A stretch of 63,884 nt of DNA, the filler included, from Dugesia japonica (lineage: Eukaryota): NCBI GenBank assembly GCA_001938525.1. It is 6 parts of 6 records of this genome, joined end to end, with 100 filler letters (N's around TTAATTAATTAA, not from the genome) between each part and the next. Parts side by side here need not be neighbours in the genome. Positions count along the whole stretch, not along the records: positions 32,679 to 44,404 come from MQRL01615187.1; 5 more parts are not named here. The stretch is one strand, 5' to 3'. The notes under the pieces were generated by a model. The model made no database searches and was not told where the DNA came from. It worked only from the letters and a program-made list of their open reading frames with translations. Positions 17,855 to 44,639 of this stretch are shown here, one piece after another. The position numbers and the translations under genes are program-made. The first letter of the stretch is position 1, and each line of letters opens with the position of its first letter.

Positions 17855-18745
17855 TTTAGGACTTATGAGTTTGGATGGATAGTTTGTCCTACAATGGTAG
17901 TGGCACACTGACACAGTCGTATGAATTATCGTGGTTTTTTATGGAGGTTGTAGGTTTGTATATGGTTGATGGAATTTGTTGGTTGATGGTTTGTTGGAGA
18001 GGTAATGTATTGAAGAAGATGTTAGTTGTCGAATGTGCTTTGATTTTGTTTAAGGGCTACTATTTGATATGGTTTATCTTGTAAGTAGTAAAAGTGTGTT
18101 AAAAATTTTTTTCGTGAGGTGGAGGTTGATATTTGTGAAAAGAGCATTAATTATCTGATTTTATAAGATTTATTTGAAANNNNNNNNNNNGGTGGTTATG
18201 ACGTCATAATTTTTTGAAATCTTTATTTTGGTTAAAAATCCTGTATTTTGCTTAAATTGATGAATTTAATGAAAGTAATGTTATTTTAATGTATTTGAGG
18301 TATTTTTGATTATTTTTTCGGTATTTTGAACGAGGAAGGGTTGGTTTTTTAATATTTTCGAATGGAGAAGAAGGGAGTCTTGATATTTTTGAAATCTTTT
18401 TTGGCGGGAAATTAAAAAAAAATGTTTGGCGGGAAATTCAAAAAAATATTTTGTTTTGAAATTTTTCATTTTAATGGGGGAAATCATTTTATTATAATTA
18501 AATTAAATTTAATTAAATTAATTTGTTTATGTAAGAGATGGGACAGTCGAGGTATTTTGTAAGGGACGAGGGAGTCAAAAATTCATAAGCGCGTGATTTT
18601 CAGTGTATGTGTGTTGCATCTAAGTTGCATACGTATTGAATTTATTTAAAATATCAATAAAAATGCATAGTCACGTGGTTTTAAATGTACGTGTGTTGCA
18701 ATTGAGTTGCATCTGAGTTGCATACCTATTGTATTTATAATTAAA
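17855..18745. repeat. Polinton lineage B terminal repeat (inner part)
   Basis: Reverse-complement homology to 41410-41915 and direct homology to 39500-40035. Abuts the pPolB 3' region. Confidence 0.8.
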
Positions 18746-19189
18746 AAACTAATTACAATAAGAAACATATATTACAACAACAACTGTTTTTCTTTTCTTC
18801 CTCCAGATGGATTTCTATTGATTCCTTTATTTCTATTGGTTCCAGGATTTAAATTAATTTTGTTAATATTTAACATGCATATGTCACGCACAATGCATGC
18901 TTACTTCTTGCACAATGCATGTTTGCATTAAAAAACTTATTAAATAATTATAAAAAAATGATAATAACAACTTTTTTTAATTAAATAAATTAATGTACAA
19001 TTTTGGTCCTAAAGAGGACCGGTTATACGTTCACAAATTTTTTTTTGAGAATTTTTTCTTTTTTTTGTATTCATAATCTAAATAAAAACAAATAAAATAA
19101 CATCTAAAAATCAATTAAATAACTACCATTGTTTGAGGTTTTGTTCTTGACCAGACTAGATTGAATGAACGGTTTTATGGAGAAAATAT

Positions 19190-20606
19190 TTATATTATAC
19201 TATAGTGACCATGTGGGACACTTTTACTTTTGCCTACCCATATGCGTTTATCATCTGTATTTGTTAGTGCTAAATTTTTAGACTTAATACTGTAGAGCTG
19301 ATGGTCTTTAGATGTTATTCTAAATTGCTCTACTGAGACCGATTTTTTCTCATTATAACAGTCAAGGTAAGACTGATGAGAAATTTCAGTGTTCTCCAAT
19401 GTTATACCTTTGGCTCTCATGTTGTTCTTTTCTCCGATACAGTCTGTCCTATGTAGCTTGGACGATCTAAGCAAACTATTTCCTTATTGAGAAGAATAGC
19501 TATTAAATTGTCACCTATTTTTGTTGTTTTCTTAAATCCAGCTTTAGATGTATATGTAATCAGCTTTTTTGCTGAATGATTCCATGATAGGACATTGATA
19601 GATAGTCCTGGATTATTTTTCTCAAACTTTGGTATATCAATCAGTTTCATTGGCATATCCTCTTCATCAAAAATAAGCTCCAACATGTATTTTTATATAA
19701 TGTTACTCGGTTTTTATTCCTTTGTCTAACTTGATCACTTTTGATGATATCAAGCATACTGTAAATAAAACAGTAATTATGATTGTTTTTGATGTTTACA
19801 ATTGCTTCATTCCTTTTTAAATCTTCGGGTGTTGGATTATAACTTTTTCCTGATAGTCGACATATATCTGCAACCTTTGTAATTTTGAAATTAATTTCAA
19901 GTATTCTGTTCAACATCCAACTGGAGCCTAGTTTACTTCGTATTGTTATTTTCTCATTCAATTGGTTGATGCCATATTTAAAAAAGTTATCAGTTAATGC
20001 AACGACTCTATTTGATATCCTACAAGATTTAAACTCAAATTCTTCTCCATCAGCAGTTTTTATTATTCCTTTGAACTCTACATGGATCCCAAATTGAATT
20101 TTAACTTTCTTCATTTCTTCTATTGTCTGTAATAATTTGTTTACTATAGCTTCTGGTAACATTATTTCACGACAATTCCATCTCAAAACATCTATTTTAA
20201 GTATCCTATGACAACGATACAAATCTGATTCTATAATTACTTCATCTACTGCTGTATTATTTGCTGATCCACCAATTTGATTATTATTTTCTGTTTCTTC
20301 TGCATCCATAAATTGTTGTGACATGATATCTTCTTCATCAAGTTCAACAATTATTTCAAAACTTTTTCAATCATCAGATTCAATATTTGCTGTTTCTTCT
20401 TGTACAATATTTGTTGTTTCCTCTTTCAGATCCAAATTGATAATTTCTCCAACAACATATTCAAGTTTTTCAACTAATTTATCTTTGATTATTATTTCTT
20501 CAACATCATCCTCAGTAATAATTATTTCAACCGGTTCATCCTTAACTGTTATTTCATCCATCTTAATTCTCTTATTTACTGGTACTTCATAAAACTCACT
20601 ATCCAT
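19190..20606 (-). pseudogene. Protein-primed DNA polymerase B (lineage B) with internal deletions
   Basis: N-terminal GSSW..GKSY..AIVNIKN..YCF and IPKFEKNNPGLSINV run directly into LDRPSYIGQTV and C-terminal RAKGI..HQSYLDC..LTNTDDKR..PHGH. Confidence 0.85.
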
Positions 20607-21194
20607 CTACCTATCTAATATTGACTTCAATATATCCTTTTTACTTTTACTAAAACAAGACAAGTGTTTATTATGTGTCATATAGAAACGTGAGAAGTCA
20701 CCTAAGCCTAATACCTTACAATTAGGACACACAAAATAGTTTTTTCCATAAAACCGTTAGCCATAGTATCCTTCCATGATACTATGACAGTCACCATTAT
20801 GACTCACACTTACGCAATGGTTGTATAATTTGCAATGTTCTGAAATAATTTAATATTAATAACATAATGATTTTAACATTTTTTTTCTTAAAAAAAATTT
20901 ATTAGCTATGTTATTTTCCATTTAAAAAAACACATATAAAAGTGTTAATGTTTAATAAAACATCATGTTAGTGAAGCAATTTTATATAAAAGAAATCTCA
21001 TTACCCATGTAATTTTTAATAAAATATCTCATAGTTTTACAAAATACGTTGCAATATTTTAAATTAATTTTATTTTTTTTGATAATAAAAAAACGTATTA
21101 TTAGCATATTACTTACAAATATTTAGTAAATAACAAAGATTTCATTTCAATGAAATGCATTTATTTTTTTACAACAAGAACAAATAAATATTGT

Positions 21195-21548
21195 CAAGTA
21201 CAATGTTGTTTTTTCAACCATGATAAACAGTGTTGACCACATGTAGTTGTAAATGGATCTTGATATCGGATTTTATTGAAGACTATTGGCTTCAATATTT
21301 TCGATAAGTGTGACACCAGCATTGATGGATAATAAAGTTCTAATGGATCAAATACTAGTATTTAAGCAGGTTTATTGTAAACAGCTATCCAATGTTCTCC
21401 ACCTAGATTTGATGTGTGAGTATTAACAATTAAGGCATTGTTTACTGGGATATATTTTAGAAGTTTATCTAATGCATAAACATGCTGATCCAAGCCACTG
21501 TGATGCAATCCGATCAATCTGAATAGTACTATTAAAATAAAAACCCAT
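21195..21548 (-). pseudogene. Adenain-like cysteine protease (Polinton PRO)
   Basis: LIVNTHTSNLGGEHWIAVY..VFDP..RYQDPFTTTCGQHCL contains the H/D/Q/C residues. Disrupted by stops and frameshifts. Confidence 0.85.
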
Positions 21549-21605
21549 TAATATAATAACACTTACTTCATAACATGTACCAATTACACAACATATTGTT
21601 TACAC

Positions 21606-22447
21606 TTATACTGTTCCGTTTTCTTTTATCTGAATTTCCTTTTCAAATACTCCATAAATTATAGCACATGCCAATGTTGTTAAAGCTTTGGCAAACTTGA
21701 TTTCCAATCTCAAATGTCCTTGTTGAAGTAATTGACTCTGATTTATATCAAAATCTGTAGCAAGAACAAATGTAAAGAAAGGATAATTATTCTTAAAATC
21801 TTGGAGTGTTATTCCACAATTCATATTCTTATCCAATATCCCATATTTCGTATTATAGGTTGCAAATATGTTGTGGTATAATTATCGTTTGTAAAATTTT
21901 AAGTATATATTTCTCGATAATCAGGGTTTTTTGACAAGGAAACAGAAGCAACATCTACATTTTGAAATGTTGAACTCGAGTTTTTATAGCTACAATTATA
22001 TTGTTCACCACTTTAAAATGTAAACAGAATAAAGCTAGGTAATTGACGATCACCAAAGATTTGTTCCTTATAAAACGGTAATAATTTATTATAGTTTCAA
22101 TTATTGCTTTTTGAAGATAAGATCCATTTTCACCTTCAATTTTAAAATTTTTAAACGAAAGAAATACATTCTTAAAAAGCGTATGCAACATATAATTACT
22201 AGGAATTACATCATGAGTGTCAGTCAAATCTTTACCACCCTTATCAAATCCCTTCACGTTAATATACAATAAAGTATCATTCAAATCCAAATATTCTGTT
22301 TGAGATCCATTTACAAAAAAACTCTACGTCACTTTGTGATTCAGAAATTGAATTCATAGGAAAGACATCTTCGATAGTACCATCTTCAATTACAGCTTGA
22401 AGAGATGGTTGATTAAAAATACATAATTCAAATTTATCGCAAATCAT
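21606..22447 (-). pseudogene. Major capsid protein (PY-type), lineage B, internally deleted
   Basis: FELCIFNQPSLQAVIEDG..EFFVNGSQTEYLDLNDTLLY..NYMLHTLF; C-terminal GITLQDFKNNYPFFTF..GHLRLEIKFAKAL. Confidence 0.85.
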
Positions 22448-22476
22448 TTTTCAAATTTTGTTCCATGACCTCTCAC

Positions 22477-22863
22477 TCATTTGTTTATCCGTGATCCATG
22501 AGATTTCTTACGTTTTCTAGTATTTTGTGGTGTTTGGGCTTGATTTGTTAGCATATTAGTTATTTCAGATGCTATTTTACTAGTTATGCTTTGCGGTAAT
22601 ATGTTTGCTACTTTTAGAATCATACTGGTTACTCTGCTAGGTAATGATGACATAACCTTTCCAAGCTCAGCTAATGCATTTGATTTCAATGTGGGTAGTA
22701 TTTTTCCATCATTAGCTAGTACATCCTGAGCTGTTTTAAGAATCGGTAAAGCAAATCTACCTATTGTTCGTAACCAACCAGATCCATACTGTTTTCCAAG
22801 AAAGTAAGGTAATTCTTTACCTGCTTGACTAATACTATACATTGAAAAAATATCAGGATTCAT
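22477..22863 (-). CDS. Polinton small virion protein (PM-like), between minor capsid and MCP
   Basis: QAG..LPYFLG.QYGSGWLRTIGRFALPILK is a QxGxG motif plus amphipathic helix, typical of this position. Basic C-terminus. Confidence 0.65.
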   Translation of the reverse strand: MNPDIFSMYSISQAGKELPYFLGKQYGSGWLRTIGRFALPILKTAQDVLANDGKILPTLKSNALAELGKVMSSLPSRVTSMILKVANILPQSITSKIASEITNMLTNQAQTPQNTRKRKKSHGSRINK

Positions 22864-23330
22864 TATTTAGTTTTCTAAAATGTAAATTTAAATGGGTTTT
22901 TGAATGTTTTGGAAACTTGATTAATTTTGCGTTATCATCGCGTATATTAATTTCTATATTGTTTATATATGATGTTGCAATAGGTAAATATATTGGATTC
23001 TCGAATATTATTTGCACTACTTCATCAGTTTCATGCTTTTCTATCCATATTGCTTTCAATAAAGGTACACTAACATCTCATACAATTATAGGTTCAACAA
23101 GACTACTACAGATGAACATTTGCTGATGTAATTTCATTATTTTCGACTTGGTAATAGCTTTGAACTGACCTTCCTTCATATCTTCAAGAGAATAATTATG
23201 TTTGTCTAATCCAAAATGTTCTTGTCAAGAAATTATCAAATACAACTTTTATGAAATCATCTTGTAGCTCGAATTCAAAATATTTATCCGCATTTATAAG
23301 GCATTTCTTAAATATTTGACTACAACTTTC
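22853..23330 (-). pseudogene. Minor capsid/penton (PX) C-terminal part
   Basis: ICSSLVEPIIV.DVSVPLLKAI..FENPIYLPI..NNIEINIRDD..LHFRK. Confidence 0.8.
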
Positions 23331-26600: not shown

Positions 26601-27439
26601 AAGACATTGGATATATGATATTACAATGACAATATACCAGGCCACTTAGAATAATTAGAGATTAATTTGTTTTATTCGTCTTATCTGTATACCTTGTAAG
26701 TATTTAATTTTTTCTATTTTATAAAAATATATTCTACATTTCACATATTTTCATTCATAACAATAACCAAATTACAGCGATTAAGACGCTAAAAAAATAA
26801 TTTTATTGCTATGAATTGCCAAAATTTGAATAATTCTCTCAAAGGTTGCGCCACTAGGCAGGTCTCAAACTAAACCAATGAGTAATCAGTAAAATAATGA
26901 TTATGAAAATACTGGAGTAGGTGGATGTGAGCGCACAAACACAGTAGGTGTTACCAAGCCCCCGGGGGGGGAGTGTTTGAATTTGTGTTTGATTTTGTGT
27001 TTGATTTCATTGGTCGGTTTTTAATTGGATGCGGGGAGATGTAGTTTTGTTTTGAAATTGTTAAATGTTTGCCGGGAAATTTAAAAATTATTTTTATTTG
27101 CGCGATTGATTAAAACAAAAAATTAATTTTTTTAGCAAGGATTACTGTGTTTGCGCGCTCACGTCAACAGTATAAAAGTTACTAGCCATCTTGGATTTAA
27201 GAATTTTTTGATTGGATTTCTGATCAGATCAGATATTTGATCGGATCAGATTTTGATTGTTGATTCTTTCTTTCCTTTTCTTTTCTCTTTTCTTTTCTTT
27301 TGAAAATCTTTTTAATAATTTATTCTATCCCTTTATGAATAATCCACGATAACATGTGGCACAAAATCAAACACACGGTTATCAGTTATCGAGCCCCCCC
27401 GAAAGGGAGGTGTGTTTGAATTTGTGTTCTTCTTTTTTT

Positions 27440-28790
27440 TAAAAAAAGTTCATAAAGTGTAGAACATTTTATAAAAAGAAATCATTACAGTAGAACTTTT
27501 TATAAAAAAGATTCATTACAGTGGAACATTTTAAAAAAAATAATTCATTACAGTGAAACTTTTTTAAAAAATAATTCATTACAGTGAAATTTTTATTAAA
27601 AAAGTTCAGAGTGGAGTCTTTGTGATATTTACATGATAAAATATTTAAATTAAAACTTTTCTTTACAAGATGATAAAAACAGAACTTTCTTCATAAAAAA
27701 ACATTAACTAGGTAATTTTCTATGAAAAATATATTACTAATGACAATTTTCTATAAAAAACATTTAGGTCATGCAATTTCTTTATAAAACACTTATTAGT
27801 CATGCAATTTTCAATAAAAAGTCTCATTAGTGTCGCAATTTTTAATAGAAAATCTTATTAGCGATACAATTTTTNATAAAAAATCTCATTAGCGATGTAA
27901 TTTTTCATTAAAAAAACAAATTGACAATGCAATTTTCCAAAATAAAACGTATTGGTGATACAATTTTCTTATAAAGAACATATTGGTGCTGCAATTTGTC
28001 TATAAAAGACATTAACCATACAATCTTTCTAAAAAAAACATATTAACCATGCAATCCTTCTATAAAACATATTGGTGATGCAATTTTTCTATAATAAACA
28101 CATATGTAGTGACAATTTTCTATACATAATGATAAAAACTTAGAGCTTTTTCATAAAAAATATATTAGCTGTGAGCCTTTCTATACAACTTGATAAAAGC
28201 ATAGAAAATTTCCATATATATAGCTAATAGGCCTATATAAAAAAGACTTATAAGTAAATATTTTGATATCTAAATAGGATTTATAAGTGTATAAGGTTTA
28301 AGAGTGAAGAGGGTTAAAGAAGGAAGAGGGTTTATGAGTGTATTTTTGCATAGGTACCTTGTATTATTTACATAGCAATTTACATTAATAGATTTTTGAG
28401 AGTTACAATTTCCATATATATAACTAAAGATTTCTTTAAAAATACCTTAAAGGCCTATATAAAACTTAAAAGTAAATGTTGTTATAACTATATATGGTTT
28501 ATGACTATATTGTTTACATAGTAACCCAGTATTATACGGTTTATGAGTGTATTATTTACATAGTAACCATGTAATATAGGGTTTTTGTTTGTATTATTTA
28601 CATAACAACCACGAATTATATGGTTTATGAAGGTATTATTTGCATAGGTACCTTGTAGTATAGGGTTTATTTAAATAATTCAGATAATAAATCATAGTTA
28701 CTATGTTTTATTGACATAGCAACCGTTTTATATAAGGTTTATGAGTGTATTATTTACATAGCATATTATATTATAAGATTTATGAGTGTG
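27440..28790. repeat. Three minisatellite arrays inside the mini-Polinton
   Basis: About 31-bp TTCATTACAGTG units (27450-27610), about 31-bp TGCAATTTTCTATAAA units (27700-28200) and about 46-bp GGTTTATGAGTGTATTATTTACATAG units (28330-28790). Confidence 0.75.
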
Positions 28791-28857
28791 GGAACGTAAA
28801 AATTATTTAATTTAAAAGCTTAGATCAAAATTTGGTTTTATTTATTGATATTGGATA

Positions 28858-28965
28858 ACAATTCAATATTTCGACCTTGTCGTCGCCAGGAATTGACTTT
28901 TTGACTAAATTGAATTGACTAAAATGTCAGTTCCTGATGAAGACAAGGTCAAAATATCGAATTAT
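28858..28965. repeat. Inverted pair of hammerhead-like motifs (PLE-type hairpin)
   Basis: Plus strand: agttc-CTGATGA-a-GAC(aag)GTC-aAAA-TA-TC-gaatt. Minus strand: caattc-CTGgCGA-c-GAC(aag)GTC-GAAA-TA-TT-gaattg. Confidence 0.65.
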
Positions 28966-30170
28966 TTCCTGCTTTAAGACTGGTAAAATATGTCCCTTTA
29001 TGCGTAAATTAGTTCTCAACAGGAAAACTAGTAATACTAGAACTAAAATATTTTAATATACAAGGATATATGGATAATATTACTTCCGATTTATTTAATT
29101 TGATTGAAAAAGCTTAGAAAAATTCCAACACAGATGCAATACAAGTACAACTCAAGTACAAATAATAACAATTTAAATTTGGATATTTAAATTTCAAATA
29201 ATTAAATATATTACGTTGTGGTATTTTGTTTTAATATATAATATAATGCAATCATTATTAATTCTATTTTCAAATATTTACTAAAAAAAATCATGACTAA
29301 AAATTTAAACCGAATTTATGAAGAAGAAGAAATACACATTTTAACAGAAGATGAAATCAAGGAAGTGGAGGTCTTTTTATGACGACAAGAATAATTTTTA
29401 TTTATTTTTTATTATTATCTAATATTGTTTATTTTTAGTTATTTTAAAGGAGATTCTGGAAGAGATGTTTCCATGTCTCAAGGCACTTTCTGAGCCATGG
29501 AAACATACATATTGGGAAAATATGAGCAACATATTGGAAATGAACATAAAAAGACTAATTCTCGATTCGAGACAACAATGGCCTTCATGCGTGGAAATTT
29601 CCGACGAATACGTCAAAATGCTTATAAGAAAACATTTATGAAATTCTTTTTATCGAAATAATGATAATGAAGAAGATGAGAATGATAAAATAGTCCTCTT
29701 TAGGGCTACAAATTCTGTTTGAAAATNGTTTTTTTAATTTTTACCAATAGAAAAATACATTTTATGTTGATTATTAAAATTTAATTTTTTTTGTAGTGTT
29801 TATATTTTTGGAGGCTCGATAATACCTACTATGTTTGTGCGCTCACATCTACTTACTTACTGGATTGTGAGAAATGGTGCCCCAAAGGAATACTCGTGGA
29901 TATACTTTTGAATTTAAAGTTTTTAAAGAGATGTCAGATTCATAGCGATTAAGAATTACATTACAAAGCTAGTACTAGAGATTGAATGCGAAGACAAATA
30001 TGCAGTTATACATAAGGTTGAAGTAAATTCATGAAAGTGTTCAGAAGGCAAAAAACCTTTTAAAATTCTAATTTTTAGTGATTTTTTATTGTAACACAAC
30101 TCTAAAAATACTTTTATTAAATATAAATATTTAAACAAAATTCAACAACATTACAAAAATAAATGTAACA

Positions 30171-31536
30171 TCAATATTTATCTTTAGATTTAGACTTCGA
30201 AACACGTTTTCGGTCACTTCTTTCTGAGCTTGATGAACTTTTATCACGATTAGTCGAATGCGATGATTTAGTACTTCTTGATTTACTTTTAGATCTTGAT
30301 CTTGATCTACTTCTTGATTTATTATAAGTTCTAGGAGATCTTCTTTGATATCCTCTTTTTCTACTTCTATCTTCTTCTACTCTTATATATGAAGTTTGAC
30401 CCTAGAAAATTAAGAAAATAAAGGTAATAATGAATAGGAAAAAGCAGATTAAAGTTAACAACTAGATATTTACTTGTAATTTCTAATAAATTATCTTGAT
30501 AACAATGAAAGTTTACATCTAACCACGTATAATTTAAGTAAAAGAATATTTCATTACCCCAATTCATTAAAACTTTTCCGAAATTATTGCCAATTTAAAA
30601 TGAATTACTACGTTTCCATTATTTAGTAAAAAAACTTAAATCTCCCGAGAAATATTCGTTATTAAAGTAAATAGTATATTCTATACAAAAAAATATTCAC
30701 ACATAAAATTCTTATTAAATGTTATTTAAAAATCTAATAACAAAAAAAAAACATTGCAGTAATATAAAATATCAATTTTCAAAAAACAATATTAATTAAA
30801 GATAATTATGAATTGCTTACCGAAACTGTTTTGAATTTAACATTGTTGACATGTTTTAAAACGTATTTAAAATCTTCTTTAGACACAAAATCACAAACAC
30901 CAGTTCCATTTCCAAACACATCGGCATAGCTAACATCTCCATACCGTCTCATGAAATCTTTTACGTCTTGCCAATTAGAATACGGTGGTATATTTGAAAT
31001 TAAAACCCGATAATCAGTACTTTTAGGAGGTCTTGGTCGTCGGTTTTGGTATGCATAATTCGGATAATTATTATTATTGTTATTATTATTTCGCCGGTAA
31101 TCACCATAATACGAAAATCTGTCTTGCCTGGGAAATGGACCATAATTAAATGGTACGTACATATCATATGGATCAAAAGGTGGTACGTATAATGGATTAT
31201 CATATCTAGGATATTCTTTATAATCTTTCTTGTTTTGTTTAATTTCTCTCGGAAATTCAACTCGTAATGAAAAGCCATCCAAGTCATAATTATCTCTTTC
31301 TCTAATAGCATCTTCAGCATCTCTTAAATCCAATATGAAATTGAGATTCAAAAATAATAAATTTAATTAATAATTTACCTTCGATCATCAAACTGAATAA
31401 AAGCGAATGGGGGACCATTTCTATTTTTAATATCAATATCTATTATTTTACCAAAGCAACTAAATAATTTTTCCACATCCCTTGATGTAGTATCCGGCGG
31501 TAAGTTACCAACATAAATCTTTCGTTCATTTGACAT
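30171..31536 (-). CDS. SRSF1: SR splicing factor SRSF1/SRSF9-like, about 296 aa, 3 exons (31536-31379, 31322-30821, 30401-30171)
   Basis: RRM1 [37 protein letters not shown]. Pseudo-RRM2 [20 protein letters not shown] tail [13 protein letters not shown] introns of 56 and 419 bp keep the frame. Confidence 0.93.
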
Positions 31537-32578: not shown

Positions 32579-34023
32579 NNNNNNNNNNNNNNNNNNNNNN
32601 NNNNNNNNNNNNNNNNNNNNNNTTAATTAATTAANNNNNNNNNNNNNNNNNNNNNNNNNNNNNNNNNNNNNNNNNNNNTATGGTGATTTTGAAAGTTGGA
32701 CCAGTACAATTACCAATAAACAAAAACCTTTATCTCTAGGAATTTATATCAATAGTAAATATCAACATTTAATTCAAATTGAATATAAAGAATTTTATGG
32801 AGAAAGCATTCTCCAACAGTTCTTTGAATTTTTAGAAGAAATAAATAATAAATTAATTGATATAACAGAAAATAAATTAATTGAATATTATACTAGAACT
32901 AATCATCCACAATTTACAAATCAAAACTGTAGATATTTTAATAAAAAGATAACTGAAAATCTAGTTATTGATCATGACCACTTTAATAAGGAATTCAGAG
33001 GTTTGTAATTTACAAGATAAATCTATAAAANNNNNNNNNNNNNNNNNNNNNNNNNNNNNNNNNNNNNNNNNNNNNNNNNNTTACAAGATAAATCTATAAA
33101 AGAATTATTTATACCATTCTATTTTCACAATGCATCTGGTTATGACAATCATCTTTTTTTCAAAGAATTAACAAAATATCCAATAGAAGTAAAATGAATT
33201 ATTCCACATACAGATGAAGTGTACATTTCCTTTGAATTTAGACATATCAGAATTTTAGATTCTTCAAGAGTGTGTCCATTTACATCGATTGATACTTGTG
33301 TAAATTATCAAATCAATCTAATAATTATAATCCTTTAAGATCATTTAATCTTGCTTCAAAGAAAATAGTTTTTCCATATGAATATGTAAAAGGAAATAAT
33401 ATTAATCAAGTAATTAATTTATTAAAAAGTAGTAATATTCCGACAAAAGAAGATTTTAACAATAAACTAAAACAACAAAAAATAACAGAACAAGGAAATT
33501 TATTTGATTTTATGATGTATTACATGAAATTAGATGTAATTATTTTAGCTGATTTCTTTGACAACTTTAGAGAGATTTGTTTAAATAATTATAACATAGA
33601 TCCAAGTTATTGGTACTCGGCTCCAGGATTAACTTCGGCTGCATGAATGAAATTCACAAAACAACAATTAAAATATGCACAAGAAGATACTTACAACATA
33701 TTTCTAAAAATAGAAAGAGGTGTTAAAAGTGTTAAATTTAATATATAGAAAATCAAAAAANTAAATTAATTACATTTATGAAGTTGATTTAAAATATCCT
33801 CCAGAAACACATGAAAAGACAAAATATTTTCCTCTAGCTCCAGATAGAATAAATATTAAAGAAGAAATGTTAGGACCATTTCAATTATCATTTAACAAGA
33901 AATTATTCAAGAAAAATATTAAATTAACATTGAATCAATTTGATAAACAAAATTATATTGTTTTGGGTTCTACATTATATTAATATTTATCTCTAGGAAT
34001 GAAAATTAAAAAAATACATAGAA

Positions 34024-34225
34024 TGTAGGTAGGTGTGAGCCCTCTGGTCTCTTTTTTTGCCTACCCCCCAGAAAAAGTTTTACCTACCCCCCCAGAAAAT
34101 TTCTTCAAATTAGTCTATTAAATTAGATTAGGAAAATTTCCCCATTAAAATAGCTTTGAAAATTTTTTCCATTAAATAAACTGGGTTTATCCAAGTAATA
34201 AACATAGAGCTCACATCTACCTAAT
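34024..34225. mobile_element. About 200-bp mini element related to the 26916 mini-Polinton termini
   Basis: GTAGGTAGGTGTGAGC...GCTCACATCTACCTA at the point where pPolB breaks. No TSD seen. Confidence 0.6.
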
Positions 34226-34559
34226 ATTCATTAAAAGAGTTTGTGATGACAAAGTGAATTCCCAATAAATTAACTAAGGAAAAATATATCCCAATAAAAA
34301 AGCGTAGGTTACTTTTTTTTAAAAATCTTACTTGTAAAAATAAACAATCTTCTTTTCTTAATAATATAAATTTTATTAGTAAAGAAACAAAATTGATAAT
34401 TAATAATACCTTATATTTTAAGAAATCTTTTAACAGAAAAAATAAATTTTTTTTTAATTAAATTAATAAAAATTTAAATAAAAAGAAGGGTTAATTAATT
34501 TTAATAAAAAAATATTTCAAATTTTTTGCATACTTCATGATATGATTGAATTCATTTTT

Positions 34560-34935
34560 GGTTGGAAATGTATTCAGTGAGGTCAATTTTCGATTGGTTC
34601 AGGTGAATTTGGTTGATAATTTGCTCGGTGATATCAAATTAAGTGAATTTTTGACTGGTTTAGAGTAATTTTTGAGTTATTTGATCAAATATTTCCTCAG
34701 AAATGATTGAGTTGGTTTATTTTTGGGTGATTCAGTCAATTAAATCAAAATTGGCTTAGGTAATATTGGTCAATTATTTCCTCGAGTTTGATAATTTTTG
34801 AGTAATATTTAAGTGATTTGGTCGAATATTTCCTCGTAATTGGTTAAGTCGGTTAATTTTTGAGTGATTCGGTCAATTATTTTCTCGGGTTTGGTTAATT
34901 TGAATAATTTTTGGGCGATTTGGTCAAATATTCGA
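34560..34935. repeat. Degenerate tandem repeats (about 40-45 bp) within the pPolB insertion
   Basis: Recurrent GGTCAA(T/A)TATTTCCTC..TTTTGAGTGATT units. Confidence 0.6.
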
Positions 34936-35309
34936 TCGGGAATAGTCATTTATATTTTGGAATTACACACATACAATTATATACAATTTAACATTGATCA
35001 GAGAAATTAATCAAAAGGAAATAATGATGTATTTCTTTAAAATTATTAAATAATGCATTTTATTGTAAAACATTAGAAGATATTAGAAAAAGATGTAACG
35101 TAGAAATAGTTGGAACAGATAAAGATTATCAAAAGTTTGCTTCAAAGATAAACTTTAGATCTAGCAAAATATTTACTTGTACAGAAACAGGTGAAACGGA
35201 AGCAGAAACAACTGCAATTCATTTAAGACAATCTAAATTAAAATATAATAAGTTTCCATAATTAGGTTTCACTATTTTAGAATATGCAAAAGAATTAATG
35301 ATTTCCTTT

Positions 35310-37140
35310 ATAACCACTTAGATGTAAAGATTCCAAACAAGTCTTTGACTTAATCCAGAAAAATGTCAGTTCATGCGAAAGGAGATCAAATTTTTGGGAC
35401 ACGTTTTCAGTAAAAAAGGTGTCAAAACAGATGCAACTAAAATAGAAGCAACTAAGAACTTCGGTAAACCAAACTGCGTTAAGTAAACGAGAAACATTTT
35501 GAGAATTTGCAAATTCTATCGGAAGTTTTTTAAAGATTATTTGAAAAAAGCTAGATTGCTGGAACAACTGTGTAATGGGCCAAGAAACAGGAAAATTGAA
35601 TGGGCGAACAAATTAAAAGAAGTTTTTAATGGAATGAAAGAAGCACTAATAATATTATTAGAGCTGAAACATTATTCCAATATTATGTTTTCCAGATATA
35701 AATAGAGGATTTATTTTGAACACAGATGCGAGTTTTATACGATTAGGGCAGTACTATCTCAAAAGGACAACAATGGGCAAGAAAGAGTAATTGCATATAG
35801 GTCCCACGCAATGGCGATTCATAAGAAAGGATATTGTACTACATGGAAAGAATTTCTGGCAATTTACTACTTTTATATTAATTTTCAACATTACTTATAT
35901 GGGAAGAGATTTATCCTCAGAACAGACCATAAAGCCATCAATTTTATGCTAAATACCAAGAAGCCNNNNNNNNNNNNNNNNCAAACCTGGATTAATTATT
36001 TGAGCAGTTTAGATATAAAATTGGAATATAGAAAAGGATCGCTTCATACAAATGCGGATATGTTGTCAATGAATGCGGTACATCTACACAATGTCTAATG
36101 TCACATGAGGATCCAAAAAGTAGAAAATTAAAAACAAGGATGTTAAATACAGTAGATATTCAAAAAAAACAAGGCAATTTTTATGAAAATGAAGGAACAT
36201 GGATACCTGATGATAAATTAAAAGAGGTTATAATGAGGATACACCATCTTTTGTGTCATGCTGGAGTAGGAAAGATAGCAGCGTATATAAAGCATAAATA
36301 TAACGCGAAACATTTGTTGAGCAAAGTACAAGAGGCTGTTTAAAGTTGTAGTACATGCCAGATAGCAAAAGTGTTGACAACAAAAACGAAGGGAAAAAAA
36401 GACGCAGCCAGCCAAAATGTTTGAACTATTATTTATAGATATGTGTGGACCACAGCCGGAGACAAGAGGTCGGAAAAAATATGTTCTCGGTATAATATAC
36501 CAATGCAGTAAGTATGTAGCCTTGATAGCAATGACAAGACAAGATGAAGATAACATACGGAAAGCAATATTGGAGAAATGGATATTAAAGTTCGGGTGTC
36601 CGAGAGAAATTCTAGTTGATTGTGGAAGAGCATTTGAGTCAAAATCAATGAAAGATTTTGGAGCTGAACATGGATATACCCTTAGATTTTTGAGTCCATA
36701 TCATCATAACACAAATAGACAAATCGAGAGGCAGTTTAGAATTGTACGTGATATGATTAATGCAACGCTTAAAGAAAGGTAAACTTCAGATTTAGCAGAT
36801 TTATTACCAAAGATAGAATTTATCTTAAATCTTACAAAACAGAAAACTATCATGAAAAGCCCTTCTGAAATCGTATTTGGGAAGAGAATAAGCCCGGAAA
36901 ATGGTATAAAACTAATACTCAGAGTGCACTAAGAACAAGAAAAAGAAAATTTAACCAAAAAACAATTCGAGATCGGTGATGAGGTCTTAGTGAAAGCTGA
37001 AACAAGAGCCAAGATCGTAATGAAGGACCCTATAAGATCAAGAGGAAAATTCATGACATACGTTACATTCTGGTAGATACAAACAAAAAAGGTCTTGAAA
37101 GAAACGTAGTGAAGATCAAATAATTTCTTAAAAAAGGGGA
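35310..37140 (+). pseudogene. Ty3/Gypsy pol remnant (RT end, RNase H, integrase)
   Basis: TDAS..IRAVLSQ, GKRFILRTDHKAI, HHLLCHAG, IDMCGP..KFGCPREILVDCGRAF..PYHH..IERQFR. Confidence 0.9.
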
Positions 37141-38674
37141 TATAAGATAGTTTTTTAAAAGAACAGATATAAAATATTTTATCTTTAAAAACGGAATTTA
37201 GTAAAATCAAAAGTATATTTAAAATTATATCAAGAAAATAAAAGAAAATAAATTACTAAAATTTAAGGATTTTTTAAAAATATAAAATGAAATGAATAAA
37301 AGATGTTTATTTAATAAATTTTTTTAAAATCAAATATAATTTAAATATAATAAAATATAAAATTAAATATTTGATTTTTCCGTTTTTGAATATGAATTTT
37401 TAACTTATAATTTTTTAAATGCAATTTAACAAAGAAATTACTTTAATTAACAGCTAAAATGTCGATTTCTAGGTTACTTTAACAAAACCTATCTATATAT
37501 TTTGGATGTTACTGTGCAATAACTGAATATGTGACTCACCTATCTTTTCTAGAAATTTAATTATTAAAATGTTATGTAATACTATATTGTATACTATTTA
37601 CAATGCATATTACATTTGCACGTAGCATCGGTTTTGATGAATACGACACACATACAAGCCGAGAAAAGTATTCCTGCAATATGATTGGTGCATAGTGAAC
37701 CGTTTTTACATTAGTATTGACGTTAATATTAATACTGAAAAGATTTTTACTCTCGGTGGGGAAGGTGATTAGTGCAATGCGGTACTATCTATCTACTTAT
37801 AATAATCAAAAAATAATATTAATATTAATAATCATAATNNNNNNNNNNNNNNNNNNNNNNNNNNNNNNNNNNNNNNNNNNNNNNNNNNNNNNNNNNNNNN
37901 NNNNNNNNNNNNNNNNNNNNNNNNNNNNNNNNNNNNNNNNNNNNNNNNNNNNNNNNNNNNNNNNNNNNNNNNNNNNNNNNNNNNNNNNNNNNNNNNNNNN
38001 NNNNNNTATTAATTACAATATTTTCAAATAATTTCCCATAAATATAAAAACAGTGATCTAAAAGACTTTTCAAAACATTTCCATGTGAATAGAGCTATTT
38101 AACATAAAACAGTACTTGAAAAGAAGTGTCTGAGTTTAAAATAGTTATCAAATGAGAAGATAACTAAAATTATAAAAAATTCTTCAAGAGAATTTAAAAT
38201 TTTTAATAAAATTTGAATTTTTAGTAAATATTATTATTAAATATTATTATTATTATTAACTATGTAAAAAGCTTTAAAAACCATTTTAATTTCTTGAGTG
38301 ATACAATTTAATGTTATCAAGTCATCATTAATACAAACGTAGTTCTCAGCTAGAATTCCCGAACATTATTTTATGAAATTTTCGAATTTTTTTCTGTAAA
38401 TAAATTTATGGTATAATAAATTTGTTTAAAGTATTTGCAAATGTGATTTTATTTCGTAATTTTAGATTGTGATGTTACATTTTACGTAAATAAAACTAAA
38501 CTATCAATCAAAAAGTCTGATTATTTTTCTAACATGGTAAAGTTTTTCGAAATAGTTTTATTTATTTCTCGTTATGTATCTTGATCTTTGNNNNNNNNNN
38601 NNNNNNNNNNNNNNNNNNNNNNNNNNNNNNNNNNNNNNNNNNNNNNNNNNNNNNNNNNNNNNNNNNNNNNNNNN

Positions 38675-38733
<59 letters not shown>

Positions 38734-38819
38734 GTTAAATTCAAAACCCCACAACTCTTCATAAATTGTATTTATTATTACAAGTGTATTTGATTGAAAA
38801 AAAAATTATATCAATTAAA

Positions 38820-39325
38820 TAAAGACATTGCGTGTCTCAATAGACCACGCTACATATGATAGACAGTTCTTGATTTAAGCCAATTACGAATGTACCAGTT
38901 TTAATACATCTAGCTGGAGAAGTATAGAAAACAAGAAAATGGCAAGATAGGAACAATATCTGGAAATACAGATAGCTTTCTTCTCAAAGTTATGAACATT
39001 ATGTTGGACAACTTATTGCCATTGATGGTAAAAGATGGACTATTAGATATATTAAATTACTCACCCAAGCCACAATTTTTACAAAATGGAACTCAATTCA
39101 GTGGTAGGAAAGTTTAAGGGTTAAAATAAAGGATGGAAATATAAAAAATTGGATTTCCTCAGATTGAAGTGTTAAAGTCTACTTAGCGAGAAGGAATTAA
39201 TGAAGACTAAGGGCATTACATTAAAAGATACGGACATAATCCACCAGTCGTATCTTGATTGTTACAATAACAATCAACTGGTGTCAGTGAAACAATGTAG
39301 AGTAGGAACAAAAAATCACATTTAT
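38820..39325 (+). pseudogene. Lineage B pPolB C-terminal fragment
   Basis: CLNRPRYI..VLDLS, GNTDSF (degenerate motif C) and KTKGITLKDTDIIHQSYLDCY, closely matching the 19190 ORF. Confidence 0.75.
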
Positions 39326-39499
39326 ATCTTTTTCTTGCTAAGGTTTCTTGGAATGGTACACAAATATCAATATAAATACTCTGAAATGGTTCATGCCTTA
39401 AATTTTATAGTTTCCTCTTTTGTTCTAACTATTGTTACTTTGTTCATTTGACCCGCTGTACATTCTTTAATTACTTTTGACACAGTTTCTCTTAAATCT

Positions 39500-40035
39500 T
39501 TTGCTTAATTTGATGAATTTAATGAAAGTAATGTCATTTTTGAGTATTTGATGTATTTTTGGTTATTTTTTCGGTATTTTGATCAGGGAAGTGTTGTTTT
39601 GTAAGATTTTTGACCTGAAAAGAGGGGAGTCTTGATATTTTTTAAAACTTTTTTTGGCGGGAAATTAAAAAAAATATTTTGGCGGGAAATTCAAAAAAAT
39701 ATTTTTGGCGGGAAATTCAAAAAAAATTATTTTTGGCGGGAAATTAAAAACAATTATTTTTGGCGGGAAATTCAAAAAACAATATTTTGATTGGAAATTT
39801 TTCATTGCAATGGGGGGAAATCTTTTTATTATAATTAAATTAAATTAATTTAATTTAATTTAATTAAATTACTTTTGTAAGAGATATTTTGCAAGGATGA
39901 AGGAGTCCCTATATTTTACATGGTATGAGGGAGTCTAAAATTCATACGCGCGTGATTTTCAGTGTATGTGTGTTGTATCTGAGTTGCATACCTATTGCAT
40001 TTATTAATAAAAATTCATAGTCACGTGATTTTTAA
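39500..40035. repeat. Polinton lineage B terminal repeat (inner part, with E2F array)
   Basis: Direct homolog of 18245-18690; its first ~140 bp are inverted relative to 41410-41520. Confidence 0.8.
39652..39776. promoter_or_regulatory. Five tandem TTTGGCGGGAAATT(C/A)AAA E2F/CHR-like motifs
   Basis: GGCGG cores at 39656, 39681, 39707, 39735 and 39762. Two more copies at 18403 and 18428. Confidence 0.6.
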
Positions 40036-40069
40036 TGTTTTTTAACTTTAATAAACAATATACTAAATT

Positions 40070-40705
40070 ATGAGTAAATTTAAAAAAAAGAAGATTAAAA
40101 GATTAAGAAATGAAGCAGTCTATCAAATTGTTATACCTAATGGTAGCGGGAAAACTTTGTTTGCATGTCAATTATTGAAATTAACGTTATTCAATTCTAA
40201 ATTTAAAAACATATACTGTCATAGAGGTGCAGATGAGGAGCATGGTCTGACTTAATCTGAATTTGTAATATTAAAATGAAAATTATAAATGGTTTTGATT
40301 CTAATTAGAGCAAAAGATTAAGACCAGGTGATGCCATTGTTGTTCATAATCTGTATCAGGAGGCAAATAAAGAAAAAGATTTCAATAATTTATTCACAAA
40401 GATATCAAGACATCGTAATGTGACTGTTATATTTATTACACAAAATCTATTTCATCAAGGAGGTAGTCATATAACACGCAATTTAAATGTACAATATTTG
40501 GTTCTATTCAAAATTTCTAGAGATCAAACTGTTGTTGATTTTCTAGCAAGACAAGCATATCCAAATAACAGACAATTTCTTATTGAATCATTTCAAGATG
40601 CAACAGAAACACCACATGGATATCTATTTCTGGACACAACAATGTCCAGATGATTATAGGGTGAGAACAGATATATTCAACCATAATGGTATCAAAGTAT
40701 ATAAA
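40070..40705 (+). pseudogene. Polinton A32-like packaging ATPase
   Basis: Walker A PNGSGKT; LFTKISRHRNVTVIFITQNLF..YLVLFK..RD..LARQ..DAT..PHGYLFLD. Frameshifted. Confidence 0.9.
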
Positions 40706-40998
40706 CANNNNNNNNNNNNNNNNNNNNNNNNNNNNNNNNNNNNNNNNNNNNNNNNNNNNNNNNNNNNNNNNNNNNNNNNNNNNNNNNNNNNNNNNNNNNN
40801 NNNNNNNNNNNNNNNNNNNNNNNNNNNNNAAGTCTCACAAGAAACAATCTCATAAGAAAACGAATGCAAATAAGAAAAACCAATTGAATAAGTTTAAAAA
40901 ACTAGCAAAAAGCACTGGAAAGAAACTGGAATTTATGAATGGAAAATGGATATCATTTTATAAACAATTAACTGGTATGTCTTTGTTATTGAAATAAA

Positions 40999-41310
40999 AT
41001 GAAATTAGAAAGAAGTATTCCGTTTTTTACTGCTTTGATTAAATCATCAAAATTAATGAGAATTAGAATTTTTGAATCGTTTCCACCATATGTTATGGAT
41101 GATTTACTTGAAAGTATTGTAAATATTGTTCGTGGTAATGTAAATTTGAGCGAAGCTAAAAAGGAAACATTGAAAAAACATTAAAAAACCTTACTATTGC
41201 TTGTAAATACTAAAAAAAGGAGATTGATGAGGAAAGTAATACGGAATAATCAAGGTGGTGGATTTATCGCAGCATTACTACCAATTGCATTAGCAGTATT
41301 AGGCTTAACT
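40999..41310 (+). pseudogene. Polinton PW-like small protein
   Basis: ESIVNIVRGNVNLS..K..LKKH*K.L..NQGGGFIAALLP, ending in a protease-site-like QxGG and hydrophobic tail. Confidence 0.7.
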
Positions 41311-41409
41311 CATTTCAAATAAACAATTGAAGCTTTTGGTCAATACATTAATAAACAATAGGCGGATTGCAATCATTACCTAATTTTGACTTAAAATTTG
41401 GATTGAATA

Positions 41410-42385
41410 GGAGGAGTCAAAAATCTTACAAAACAAAACTTCCCTGATCAAAATACCGAAAAATAACCAAAAATACTCAAAAATGACATTACTTTCATTA
41501 AATTCATCAAATTAAGCAATATACAGCATTTTTTACCAAATTAAATATTTCAAAAATTTATGGCATCATAACCAACCGACAGAAAAATTTCAAATAAATC
41601 TTTTAAAATCCGATAATTAATTCTCTTTTCAGACATACCAACCTCCACCTCACGAAAAAGTTTTTTAACACACTTATACTACTTACAAAATAAACCAATC
41701 AAAATCAAGCCTTAAAAATAAAACATCAAAGCACATTCGACAATTAACATCTTTACCATCACATTACCTCTCCAACAAGCTATCAACCAAAAAAATTCCA
41801 TCAACAACATAAAAACCTACAACCCAAACAAAAACCACCCACGATAACTCATCCGCCTGTGCCCGTGTGCCACTACCCTTGTAGTGAAAACCATCCATCC
41901 AAACTCATAAGTCCTTTAGACAATATATAGACCAAATTTTTGTCCAACAACAAATAAATATTTAAAATCCCAAAACAATTATCTCCAAGATCTCCAGCTA
42001 CTCCTCCTCGTTTTTCCAGTCTTTTACACACACACACACANNNNNNNNNNNNNNNNNNNNNNNNNNNNNNNNNNNNNNNNNNNNNNNNNNACACACACAC
42101 ACACAAACACAACTTGACCTACTTTTTAAAGACCATCTTAACAACCCAAACACACAGTAAATTTAAAATTTTAAAATACACACACACTTTTTTTTATCCT
42201 AAAAATCTTAGAAAGAAAAAATGATCACAAAAATCATGGTTAAAAAACGCAGTTCAAGCGTAATGTGTTTCCTAGCCCCCTTCCGGATAGGGAGGGGGAG
42301 GGGGGCTCGATAATTGCTTAAAAATAATTGTGCCCGAATTTTGGCTCATTGCCAAATTGTGCCCGTGTGCCACTATCTATCTACT
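41410..42385. repeat. Polinton lineage B terminal repeat, outer part with true terminus
   Basis: Ends ...GCCACTATCTATCTACT. The 18-mer TGTGCCCGTGTGCCACTA is duplicated at about 41858 and 42358. Contains (CA)n. Confidence 0.8.
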
Positions 42386-42869
42386 GATATGTCCAAAAAA
42401 TTTGACTTCTAATCACAATAAATTACATTTTTCCGGATTAATTCTCAACCCTGATTCTTGAATTCTTATATAAACTTGGTTATAATATATATAAATATTA
42501 ATATTATTACATGTTTTTTGATTAAAGTAAAAAAATATGAAGAATAATTCATAGTATTCAACCAAATAATCTGAGAAATTTTTAATAAAATATTTTTAAA
42601 ATATCGATTTTAATTCTACAAAATATTTATACTTTACATATATTTTTAATTATTTTTCTACATAATTTCTTTAAAATAAATTATGCTTTTATTATTTTCC
42701 TAATATAATATATAGAAATTATTGAAATGAAATATTTTATATTTTAAAGATCTGTTAAGTACATATTTTACAATAATATTTGAATGTTTCAAAAAAAGAA
42801 ATTTTAATGTAATATACATAAAAATTAAAAATTTTCCCAGATATTTAAAATCTATGAATCACTCTGACA

Positions 42870-42884
42870 ATTATTATTATTATG

Positions 42885-42937
<53 letters not shown>

Positions 42938-43010
42938 NNNNNNNNNNNNNNNNNNNNNNNNNNNNNNNNNNNNNNNNNNNNNNNNNNNNNNNNNNNNNNN
43001 NNNNNNNNNN

Positions 43011-43078
<68 letters not shown>

Positions 43079-43408
43079 TATATTCTCTATTAATCAAAAT
43101 CAGTTTCAAAATGTACTATCAACTCAATGATGATTTCACTGATTCAGTTTCTTGCTATCTCTTTAATTGCATCTAATTGCTTCATTTACATTAACATTTC
43201 ATAAATAGATTTAATAATTTTATTTCTGTAATGTAACTTGATACCTGATGATTGATTTTCCCGGAAAGAATCGTGTCCATCAATTTTCAATTACACCATA
43301 TAAAATTAAGATTTATTATTATCATGCATTTTACTATGAAGCATGCTACTAAATGGATTTAAATGTTAATTATTTATATCCCATTTATTTCTTTATTATT
43401 TACTATTA

Positions 43409-43470
<62 letters not shown>

Positions 43471-43520
43471 NNNNNNNNNNNNNNNNNNNNNNNNNNNNNN
43501 NNNNNNNNNNNNNNNNNNNN

Positions 43521-43568
<48 letters not shown>

Positions 43569-43590
43569 CATTATTATTATTATTATTATT
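42870..43590. repeat. (ATT)n microsatellites
   Basis: Long TAT/ATT runs around gaps; also at 38674-38732 and 50326-50360. Confidence 0.95.
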
Positions 43591-44348
43591 TTAAATTTTA
43601 TTTAGTTTATTGATTATTTAATTTCTGATTGTTTTTTTTTCAAAAAAATATTTCAAACAGTTGAAAATTATTTTAACAATTGTGTTCATAAATAATTAAA
43701 TAAATGTTTTTGTTTTCATTTAAATGTGATGAATGCAAATTTACAAGAGAAAGTTTACTATATCTATTTTTTAAAATTGGTCAAATAATGATTTATTTAA
43801 ATTTGTTTCAGAAGATTAATTTTTGGATTTTCCCTAATAACTTTGCTTGAAAAATTCATTATTTTCTATGATCACCAATTAGATGTTTTTTGAAAAATCT
43901 GAATCTCTTTATTCATTTAATTTATTATAATTTTAATTAAGATAAATAATTAATTAACTAATTATTTATTTTTTTAATTCATTCAATAAAATTTTTTTAT
44001 ATTTTTAATATGAAATATATTTTTNNNNNNNAAAAAAAATGCTTGTATTTAAAAATCATTCAACGTTTCTCTCGACATCCGGTTGCTTGTATTTATAAAT
44101 GCAAACAATTAATAAAAAATTGAGAACAAATTTCCAAACCATTTTAATTGAAATTCCTCCTAATAACTTTCCTTTGGAAAAATTTGTTATAAATAGTATA
44201 GTTTTACTATTAACTTACATATTTCATTGATTTTTCTCTCTATTCAAAAAAGGTTAATTTTTTTATAATTATTAAAAATAATGTTTTAAAAACTAAAAAA
44301 TATTCATAATTATTTTAAATAAATAATTGACAACTAATTTTTAAAATA

Positions 44349-44399
44349 TTTATTTGCGATCAATTTCGACAGAATAACCGTCTTCGTCAGGCAATTAAA
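44349..44399 (-). ncRNA. Minimal type I hammerhead ribozyme motif
   Basis: ttgc-CTGACGA-a-GAC(ggttattct)GTC-GAAA-TTGA-TC-gcaa-ataaa. Confidence 0.7.
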
Positions 44400-44639
44400 G
44401 AATANNNNNNNNNNNNNNNNNNNNNNNNNNNNNNNNNNNNNNNNNNNNTTAATTAATTAANNNNNNNNNNNNNNNNNNNNNNNNNNNNNNNNNNNNNNNN
44501 NNNNACTTATTTATTTTTTATTAAACATTTGCCATCGTTTCTGGAATATTTATTTAAATTGTTTATTATTCTTTCACGATTTAGATTTCTTTCATTTACA
44601 TTTTGTTTACATATCATCAACTGAAATACTAATAATTTT

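Follow-up and report, generated by a model that had tools for sequence, protein, structure and literature searches.

Tandem E2F-type sites in putative terminal repeats of Polinton elements from Dugesia japonica

The stretch of Dugesia japonica DNA analysed here, referred to as the window, comprises 63,884 bases and consists of six scaffolds joined by five 100-bp artificial spacers (N44-TTAATTAATTAA-N44). The DNA is very rich in A/T and in transposons, and Polinton pieces are distributed over four of the six scaffolds. Scaffold D (positions 32,679 to 44,404, MQRL01615187.1) harbors a five-unit array of short sites with a G/C core, a two-unit copy of the array is located on scaffold B, and a mini-element bearing a single related site is found on scaffold C. 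Since the three lie on three separate scaffolds, they represent three separate insertions. The relevant features are listed below, in which A-type and C-type designate units whose hexamer 4 nt past GGCGG reads TTAAAA and TTCAAA, respectively.

9868-9967, 23384-23483, 32579-32678, 44405-44504 and 54374-54473: artificial spacers
17858..18750, plus strand: putative right-hand terminal repeat of a Polinton on the minus strand, lying past the polymerase 3' end, with its outer end missing
18400..18442, plus strand: two-unit copy of the array (A-type, C-type)
18672..18677, plus strand: CACGTG homologous to that at 40022
19190..23125, minus strand: Polinton remnant with minor capsid, PW-like, major capsid, protease and internally deleted protein-primed polymerase genes
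26916..29857: non-autonomous mini-element flanked by a 6-bp target-site duplication (TACTGG), its inverted ends of ~47 bp starting with AGTA
27068..27085, plus strand: E2F-like site with one change (GCCGGG core) and TTTAAA at 4-nt spacing
32679..39320, plus strand: interrupted protein-primed polymerase of another or a rearranged element, split by two insertions, one an LTR-retrotransposon and the other small and with inverted repeats
39499..40038, plus strand: inner part of the inferred left terminal inverted repeat with the array, truncated at 39499
39653..39776, plus strand: five tandem units of the E2F/DP optimum (TTTGGCGGGAAA), with A-, C-, C-, A- and C-type hexamers
40022..40027, plus strand: CACGTG within a duplicated unit of ~80 bp whose other unit has CGCGTG; not significant
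40070..40705, plus strand: broken A32-like packaging ATPase gene with a stop near 40253 and pieces in two frames
40993..41322, plus strand: broken PZ-like core protein gene, 24% identical by tblastx (translation) to the open reading frame after the ATPase in a related locus, L001
41417..42385, minus strand: outer part of a right terminal repeat, ending in AGTAG and stopping ~40 bp before the array position

The gene content agrees with Polinton/Maverick elements (adintoviruses), in that remnants of polymerase, integrase, ATPase, capsid and protease genes are all present, as described for this group (PMC8097293, PMC8502044). A protein-primed family B polymerase was recognized, and every copy of it is broken. 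On scaffold D, PF03175 was matched at 33293-33643 (E 2e-6), together with RT_RNaseH at 35706-36095 and rve at 36378-36779; the C-terminus of the scaffold B polymerase (19193-19483) is identical to 39176-39448 at 26/46 positions (57%). Relatives of the ATPase were found in 199 of 246 candidates, the best of them 85% identical, and most of those listed carry PF04665. The ATPase query P0007 gave Pox_A32 at E 6e-6 and matched 40070..40705 in tblastn, and the ATPase fragment of the window alone had no Pox_A32 match in the profile search. The genes of 19190..23125 were assigned by tblastn with L001 proteins, Peptidase_C5 being reached only at E 0.19, and the same approach placed integrase, minor capsid, PW-like and major capsid genes on one strand of scaffold E. 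Thus integrase, capsids and protease match scaffolds B and E and are absent from the array scaffold D. The labels PZ and PW follow Polinton nomenclature and were assigned through unannotated L001 frames.

Several further elements were observed in the same DNA. A second kind of Polinton-like module lies on the plus strand at 11878-15308 and encodes a double jelly-roll capsid (PF21738), a parvovirus-type PLA2-like domain (PF08398) and an rve integrase. The polymerase gene of scaffold D contains an insertion of ~200 bp (34020-34222), the ends of which, AGGTAG.TGTGAGC, resemble those of the mini-element, and 51-bp tandem repeats follow this insertion at 34766-34932. On scaffold A, a near-perfect palindrome of 165 bp (81-bp arms, 94%) occupies 2428-2592. 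A divergent SRSF1-like host gene is situated on the minus strand at 30171-31518, with introns of ~55 and ~420 bp by eye; it has one relative at 79-89% identity, its remaining matches are at ~45-50% (the named ones being bivalve), and its family membership was borne out in Atlas and PDB.

The surroundings of the array occur in two contexts, directly before the ATPase on scaffold D and, on scaffold B, past the polymerase gene on its 3' side and turned towards it. The segment 39499..40038 is 88% identical over aligned columns to 18246-18750, and this homology stops ~30 bp before the ATPase ATG. By blastn, 41417..42385 matches 17858-18361 at 81% and 39501-39614 at 90%; the outer part appears as an inverted repeat at 41417-41915 and continues to the AGTAG end at 42385, which is of the AG/AGT type, while the inverted overlap supporting a terminal repeat amounts to 114 bp. 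From these pieces the array would be placed within a Polinton terminal inverted repeat of ~1.4 kb (~1,390 bp), its first unit ~1,010 bp from the repeat end, and such a length falls within the 46-1,447 bp given for vertebrate Maverick terminal repeats (PMC8097293). The sequence-only reading had spoken of terminal repeats outright; the homology in two contexts speaks for the term, but the repeat stays putative because no large element in the window has both ends. Scaffold D is a rearranged mosaic, and the scaffold B repeat is without its outer part. Dispersed repeats of 60-145 bp at 15670-17850 stand in the place of that part.

A native order of polymerase, array and ATPase on scaffold D was considered and rejected, as the repeat is oppositely oriented to the polymerase in the other copy. 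The stretch 39320-39499, which by eye resembles a piece of LTR-retrotransposon integrase, also opposes it; this label is weak, with no Pfam match and a tblastx E value of 0.37.

The mini-element is the only one for which a target-site duplication was seen, with TACTGG flanking it on both sides, and this duplication and the AG-starting ends are again features of Polinton/Maverick elements. The Polinton setting and the mini-element proposed earlier both hold. Its site reads TTTGCCGGGAAATTTAAA and is positioned ~150 bp inside the left end and ~95 bp before TATAAAAG. When the left 500 bp of the mini-element were compared with the large repeat, the best local match was the E2F block, with a score of 44 against a maximum of 37 in 300 shuffles; in the control, 1/98 unrelated real 500-bp windows matched the large repeat at score 45. 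The mini-element and the B element share a 31-bp repeat and the E-box region. As observations in their own right, the left end of the mini-element (27068-27180) resembles a compact promoter, with two further TTTGCGCG (27097, 27150), CACGTCA and TATAAAAG (27172) beside the E2F-like site and with no long frame downstream. Tandem repeats of 31 and 42 bp occur at 27435-28124 and 28491-28670, and the 31-bp family recurs between the protease and the polymerase of the B element at 20884-21032.

Exact copies of TTTGGCGGGAAA number seven in the window, five at 39653-39770 and two at 18400-18436, and GGCGGGAAA likewise occurs seven times in the 63,884 bases, always on the plus strand (18403, 18428, 39656, 39681, 39707, 39735 and 39762). 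All seven units read TTTGGCGGGAAATT. The hexamers follow in the order TTAAAA, TTCAAA, TTCAAA, TTAAAA, TTCAAA on scaffold D, of which 3/5 fit TTYRAA, and TTAAAA, TTCAAA on scaffold B (1/2). Within the five-unit array the start-to-start spacing is 25, 26, 28 and 27 bp, and the units begin 308-414 bp upstream of the first in-frame ATPase ATG (40070). Every coordinate of the sequence-only reading proved right, namely those of the five-unit array, of 18403 and 18428, of 27068 and of CACGTG at 18672 and 40022; so did its estimates of a 25-28 bp spacing and of some 300 bp to the ATPase, and its count of three exact hexamers among five.

Additional similarities surround the arrays. A possible decayed extra unit lies on the 3' side, TTTTGTTTTGAAATT at 18449-18463 in B and TTTTGATTGGAAATT at 39786-39800 in D, and the TTTTGTTTTGAAATT form, containing TTTGAA, recurs 25 bp upstream of the mini-element site. 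At 15 bp upstream of the first core there is TTTGAA in B (18388-18393) and TTTAAA in D (39641-39646), a change that stays within TTYRAA, and the spacing matches no described element. No Rfam family was matched anywhere in the window, the RNA fold of the array was worse than that of 181/200 shuffles, and a search of the plasmid collection with 39499-40066 gave no match.

The motif is rare. With up to one mismatch, TTTGGCGGGAAA matched 9 times, where shuffles averaged 0.22 (maximum 3; 0/100 shuffles reached 9), and SSCGS-N4-TTYRAA gave 5 against 0.34 (0/100 reached 5). Both figures are too favourable, since all units go back to one A-C pair present in both large copies. A sounder measure is one exact 12-mer. 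With the arrays masked out, Markov models (order 0-3) predict 0.002-0.005 occurrences of it in a window of this size and 0.00004-0.0003 in a repeat of 1.4 kb. Corrected for some hundreds of recognisable motifs, this rarity still holds at the few-percent level and only to that level; moreover, the motif was picked out post hoc among many possible factors, which lowers its significance. The two one-mismatch matches are 27068 and 5702, and as the latter falls within a DDE transposase frame, the one-mismatch class also arises by chance. Tandem Repeats Finder reported a 55-bp period plus a 27-28-bp period in the scaffold D array. The seven units are not independent and descend from one ancestral A-C pair that was expanded, and all eight sites trace to two or three independent events at most. 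The finding accordingly rests on two or three such events in dead copies, and it is real and exact in sequence.

As to the factor that might read such a unit, PMC4686757 reports that E2F8 was crystallised on TTTTTGGCGGGAAAA, that the SELEX seeds are NTTTGGCGGGAAAN for E2F8 and WWWTGGCGGGAAA for E2F2-DP1, and that the A/T flanks of the site are read via narrowed minor grooves in the structure. The E2F8 seed is matched by 7/7 units and the E2F2-DP1 seed by 6/7, and a GGCGGG core with a T-run on its 5' side and an A-run on its 3' side is present in all seven, the mini-element site showing one core change. By its sequence, the unit equals the complete published SELEX/crystal optimum for E2F/DP and for the repressors E2F7/8, so that the identification as an E2F site gained stronger support than had first been offered for it. 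Since the whole unit is an optimal site, GAAA is part of the E2F site and not a neutral spacer. E2F is widely conserved across eukaryotes (PMC7329337). Elsewhere in the window, a 172-bp element at 10914-11085 has inverted ends of ~26 bp starting AGTAGTAG and no matching 6-bp duplication, and at its centre (10963-10978) it bears TTTTGGGCGCGGAAAA, which is E2F-like with an 8-bp G/C core that misfits the optimum.

The sequence-only reading had gone further and assigned the units to the DREAM/MuvB architecture. This stands in part: TTYRAA follows the G/C element at 4 nt in 4/7 units and at the mini-element site, but it is absent in 3/7, including the first unit of both large copies (TTAAAA), and the supposed spacer GAAA lies within the E2F site. 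In the window TTYRAA follows 11/1,246 GAAA positions, 5 of the 11 being these very sites; the background at a fixed position is near 0.5-0.9%, so one such event has a chance below 1%. The hexamer exists in two variants, TTCAAA after C-type units and TTTAAA at the mini-element site. LIN54 is described as binding TTYRAA, best with Y = T or R = A (PMC4974476), by which TTCAAA and TTTAAA qualify as LIN54-type hexamers and TTAAAA does not. C-type units also conform both to the 4-nt rule of mammals (PMC5716687) and to the BSSSSS-NNN-TTYRAA pattern of worms (PMC10113156, PMC5683655).

In the combination of a G/C element, a 4-nt spacing and, for 4/7 units and the mini-element, TTYRAA, the sites resemble the E2F/CLE and CDE/CHR elements of DREAM promoters (PMC5716687, PMC4974476, PMC5683655, PMC10113156). 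Against a DREAM assignment, the hexamer merges into an A-run and, unlike that of DREAM promoters, is the reverse of the canonical TTTGAA. Host DREAM promoters, as portrayed there, have single elements near the start site, whereas up to five tandem units are found here and 3/7 are without the hexamer. The mammalian sites were sought within 200 bp of the start site (PMC5716687); the 308-414 bp separating array and ATPase are counted from the ATG and not from a start site. E2F/CLE is presented there as the S-phase gene class, in which the hexamer only supports binding (PMC5716687). With a full E2F site and a hexamer other than TTTGAA, the units are closer to E2F/CLE than to CDE/CHR in the classes set out in PMC5716687. 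DREAM involvement on its own is put forward as tentative, being possible and on balance somewhat doubtful.

We favour, at a probability of roughly 0.55, the reading that the array would be an E2F-responsive upstream element, perhaps DREAM-assisted, which tied the Polinton to cycling cells. The exact seed matches including the A/T flanks argue for it, as do the rarity of the 12-mer, TTYRAA at its fixed place, the two 12-mers kept intact between B and D, the E2F-block match of the mini-element and the adenovirus and adintovirus precedents. Weighing against it are the small number of independent events, the lack of TTYRAA after the first unit in both copies, core G/C conserved not significantly above flanking G/C, the one control window that matches as well, the 0/3 related loci, the absence of LxCxE from plausible frames, and the Brassicaceae sites that are mostly bound yet seemingly without regulatory effect. 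As the window copies are dead, the proposed function belongs to the ancestral active element. The terminal repeat of this ancestor would have carried two full-length E2F/DP sites of high affinity, of which one preceded a LIN54-type hexamer. In one copy the two became five via slippage or unequal exchange, a change that might or might not adjust regulatory strength. The left-end sites stand 0.3-0.4 kb upstream of the ATPase, the first gene of a module that reads away from the end and continues with the PZ-like gene and then, by comparison with L001, with integrase and capsid genes. In resting cells, E2F/DP with a pocket protein, perhaps with MuvB, would be bound and keep the module off; in cycling cells, release or activation would turn it on. 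Cycling cells would supply nucleotides and repair enzymes, and insertions made there could reach stem or germ cells. The presence of a copy at the right end would simply follow from the identity of the two ends. The motif, its rarity, its agreement with the published optimum, its homology between copies and the Polinton setting are established; the conjectural parts of this proposal are the terminal-repeat geometry, binding, the direction in which regulation runs, DREAM involvement and any benefit to the element.

That the array is instead a passenger minisatellite, namely an E2F site, arisen by chance or captured from the host, that slippage between A/T runs duplicated and that spread with the element without affecting it, even if E2F may still bind it, we regard as unlikely, and much of the comparative evidence bears on it. 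Homopolymer runs flank the units, and it is mainly the length of these runs that distinguishes the five spacers; other tandem repeats (31, 42, ~80 bp) exist in the same element family. Between B and D, 655/758 aligned columns of the flanks are identical, including 183/222 and 183/227 G/C positions. Under these rates the probability that both 12-mers stay intact by chance is about 0.02 (for two copies only), whereas that for the 12 core G/C is 0.086, which is not significantly above the flanking G/C and leaves room for a passenger; conservation of the sites above their flanks (p 0.02-0.09) is therefore suggestive and not decisive. An inverted duplicate inside scaffold D is identical in 106/110 columns, and hence the five intact cores need no post-insertion selection. 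The difference of two against five units, which the sequence-only reading had pointed out, is real, but it is explained by expansion of one pair and carries no evidence of selection. What tells against a passenger is that the match extends to a 12-13 bp optimum and not a loose consensus, that TTYRAA at DREAM spacing is present in two variants, and that the array lies just upstream of the first gene.

Two further arguments concerning conservation carry no weight. CpG is barely depleted in the window, with an observed/expected ratio of 0.83, and survival of the cores is therefore no special feat. The E-box, earlier cited as kept in both copies, is indeed present in both, but it is unremarkable, because a 6-mer often survives at 86% flank identity; CACGTG has 6 sites in the window including 18672 and 40022, and the E-box was rejected as a conserved signal on this count and as part of the ~80-bp duplication.

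Amplification of E2F sites by mobile DNA has precedents. Brassicaceae MITEs and Helitrons were reportedly found by Henaff et al. in 2014 to have amplified such sites. Later papers describe them as bound in vivo and mostly far from genes (PMC7329337, PMC5950925, PMC12595863), a distribution that would suit a passenger, and most of the transposon-borne sites as bound yet seemingly without regulating nearby genes (PMC7329337). The present case resembles them in that a DNA transposon spreads a TTSSCGSSAA-type E2F motif of which one variant dominates. Unlike the short non-coding plant elements, the carrier here is gene-bearing and virus-like, its own genes are a possible target, and a CHR-like hexamer follows the site.

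A parallel to the favoured E2F-responsive element is offered by adenovirus. There, a conserved E2F site lies beside the left end and Rb/p107 repress E1A, aiding persistence (PMC4726734). As in the E1A enhancer so described (PMC4726734), the present sites are E2F sites situated upstream of the first gene, in non-coding DNA beside one end of a linear dsDNA genome, and both genomes are of the protein-primed polymerase kind, for which a switch between rest and replication is plausible. In adenovirus, by the same account, the sites are two, stand singly outside a terminal repeat that is short, and control an Rb-binding protein (PMC4726734), whereas the candidate sites here form a tandem array within the long putative repeat of an element that integrates, and the gene behind them encodes a packaging ATPase; nor was an LxCxE protein found in the frames of the window. 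The search for LxCxE in six frames of the window and of three related loci returned 5 matches, all in short or off frames and none in a plausible Polinton gene. Adintoviruses often encode candidate LXCXE proteins (PMC8502044).

If the sites are bound by E2F/Rb, they could serve replication, repair or silencing and not transcription of the first gene, quieting the integrated copy or attracting the S-phase machinery to its termini. Both ends have sites, those at the right end face the 3' end of the polymerase and cannot drive it, the unit is equally the optimum of the repressors E2F7/8, and a role of E2F/RBR in transposon replication and repair has been proposed for the plant elements (PMC7329337). 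The position of the array, ~1 kb from the terminus and near the first gene, weighs the other way. In adenovirus-type origins, protein-primed replication starts at the terminus, and the array, ~1 kb inside, is therefore far from the protein-primed start, which counts against a replication role. We consider this alternative improbable.

It is highly improbable that the repeats are sites for a protein of the element, such as the packaging ATPase, terminal protein or integrase, with a coincidental likeness to E2F sites. A packaging ATPase and an integrase are encoded by the element, and adenovirus has packaging repeats that coincide in part with the E1A enhancer, close to its left end (PMC4726734). 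Nevertheless, identity over 12 bp with the optimum of a host factor would be a 1-in-several-thousand coincidence per repeat, the copy number ranges from 1 to 5, and related loci are without the motif upstream of the ATPase. Hardly credible is an assembly artefact that inflated a two-unit locus, for the five spacers all differ and the motif is present in two further scaffolds, even though the draft is fragmented with many gaps and the units are homopolymer-rich.

The related loci came from one scan of bacterial/archaeal genome contigs, in which 3 Polinton-like loci (L001-L003) were recovered from 83 candidate stretches, with ATPase identities of 61, 43 and 39%. They extend over 1-8630, 1-7921 and 1-4364, hold largely open genes, and are filed in bacterial MAGs (Lysobacterales, Limnohabitans), their DNA being probably misbinned and of eukaryotic or viral origin; in L002, one run comprises the polymerase, ATPase, integrase and minor capsid genes. 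Allowing one mismatch, the 12-mer was found in 0/3, the 4 kb upstream of the L001 ATPase included. As none of the three includes an end, this shows only that an array before the ATPase is not a constant feature. One loose SSCGS-N4-TTYRAA at 3614 in L001 is inside a coding frame, and so the loose pattern arises by chance. The ATPase follows almost directly after the polymerase in L002 and L003 and is internal in L001, and its placement next to an end is therefore not general.

A literature search, which took in few subscription papers, returned no report of E2F sites in Polinton, adintovirus or Maverick repeats. E2F sites being known at adenovirus ends and in plant MITEs, what appears to be new here is the Polinton carrier. 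No trigger is known that switches on animal-type Polintons. The terminal-repeat E2F array provides a short, directly testable switch candidate, namely a 130-bp fragment and one 12-mer. A bolder version, that Polinton terminal repeats carry an E2F/Rb-DREAM switch tunable by repeat number, silent in resting soma and on in cycling stem or germ cells, is distinctly unlikely and speculative. If true, it would explain when Polintons choose to replicate, and the E2F/E1A circuit of adenovirus would have been derived from a cis-regulatory strategy that its integrating relatives already possessed. If confined to this Polinton family, the array would add a third case to those in which mobile DNA has spread E2F sites; if general, it would tie Polintons to the Rb/E2F logic of the small DNA tumour viruses and make them a possible source of mobile cell-cycle enhancers.
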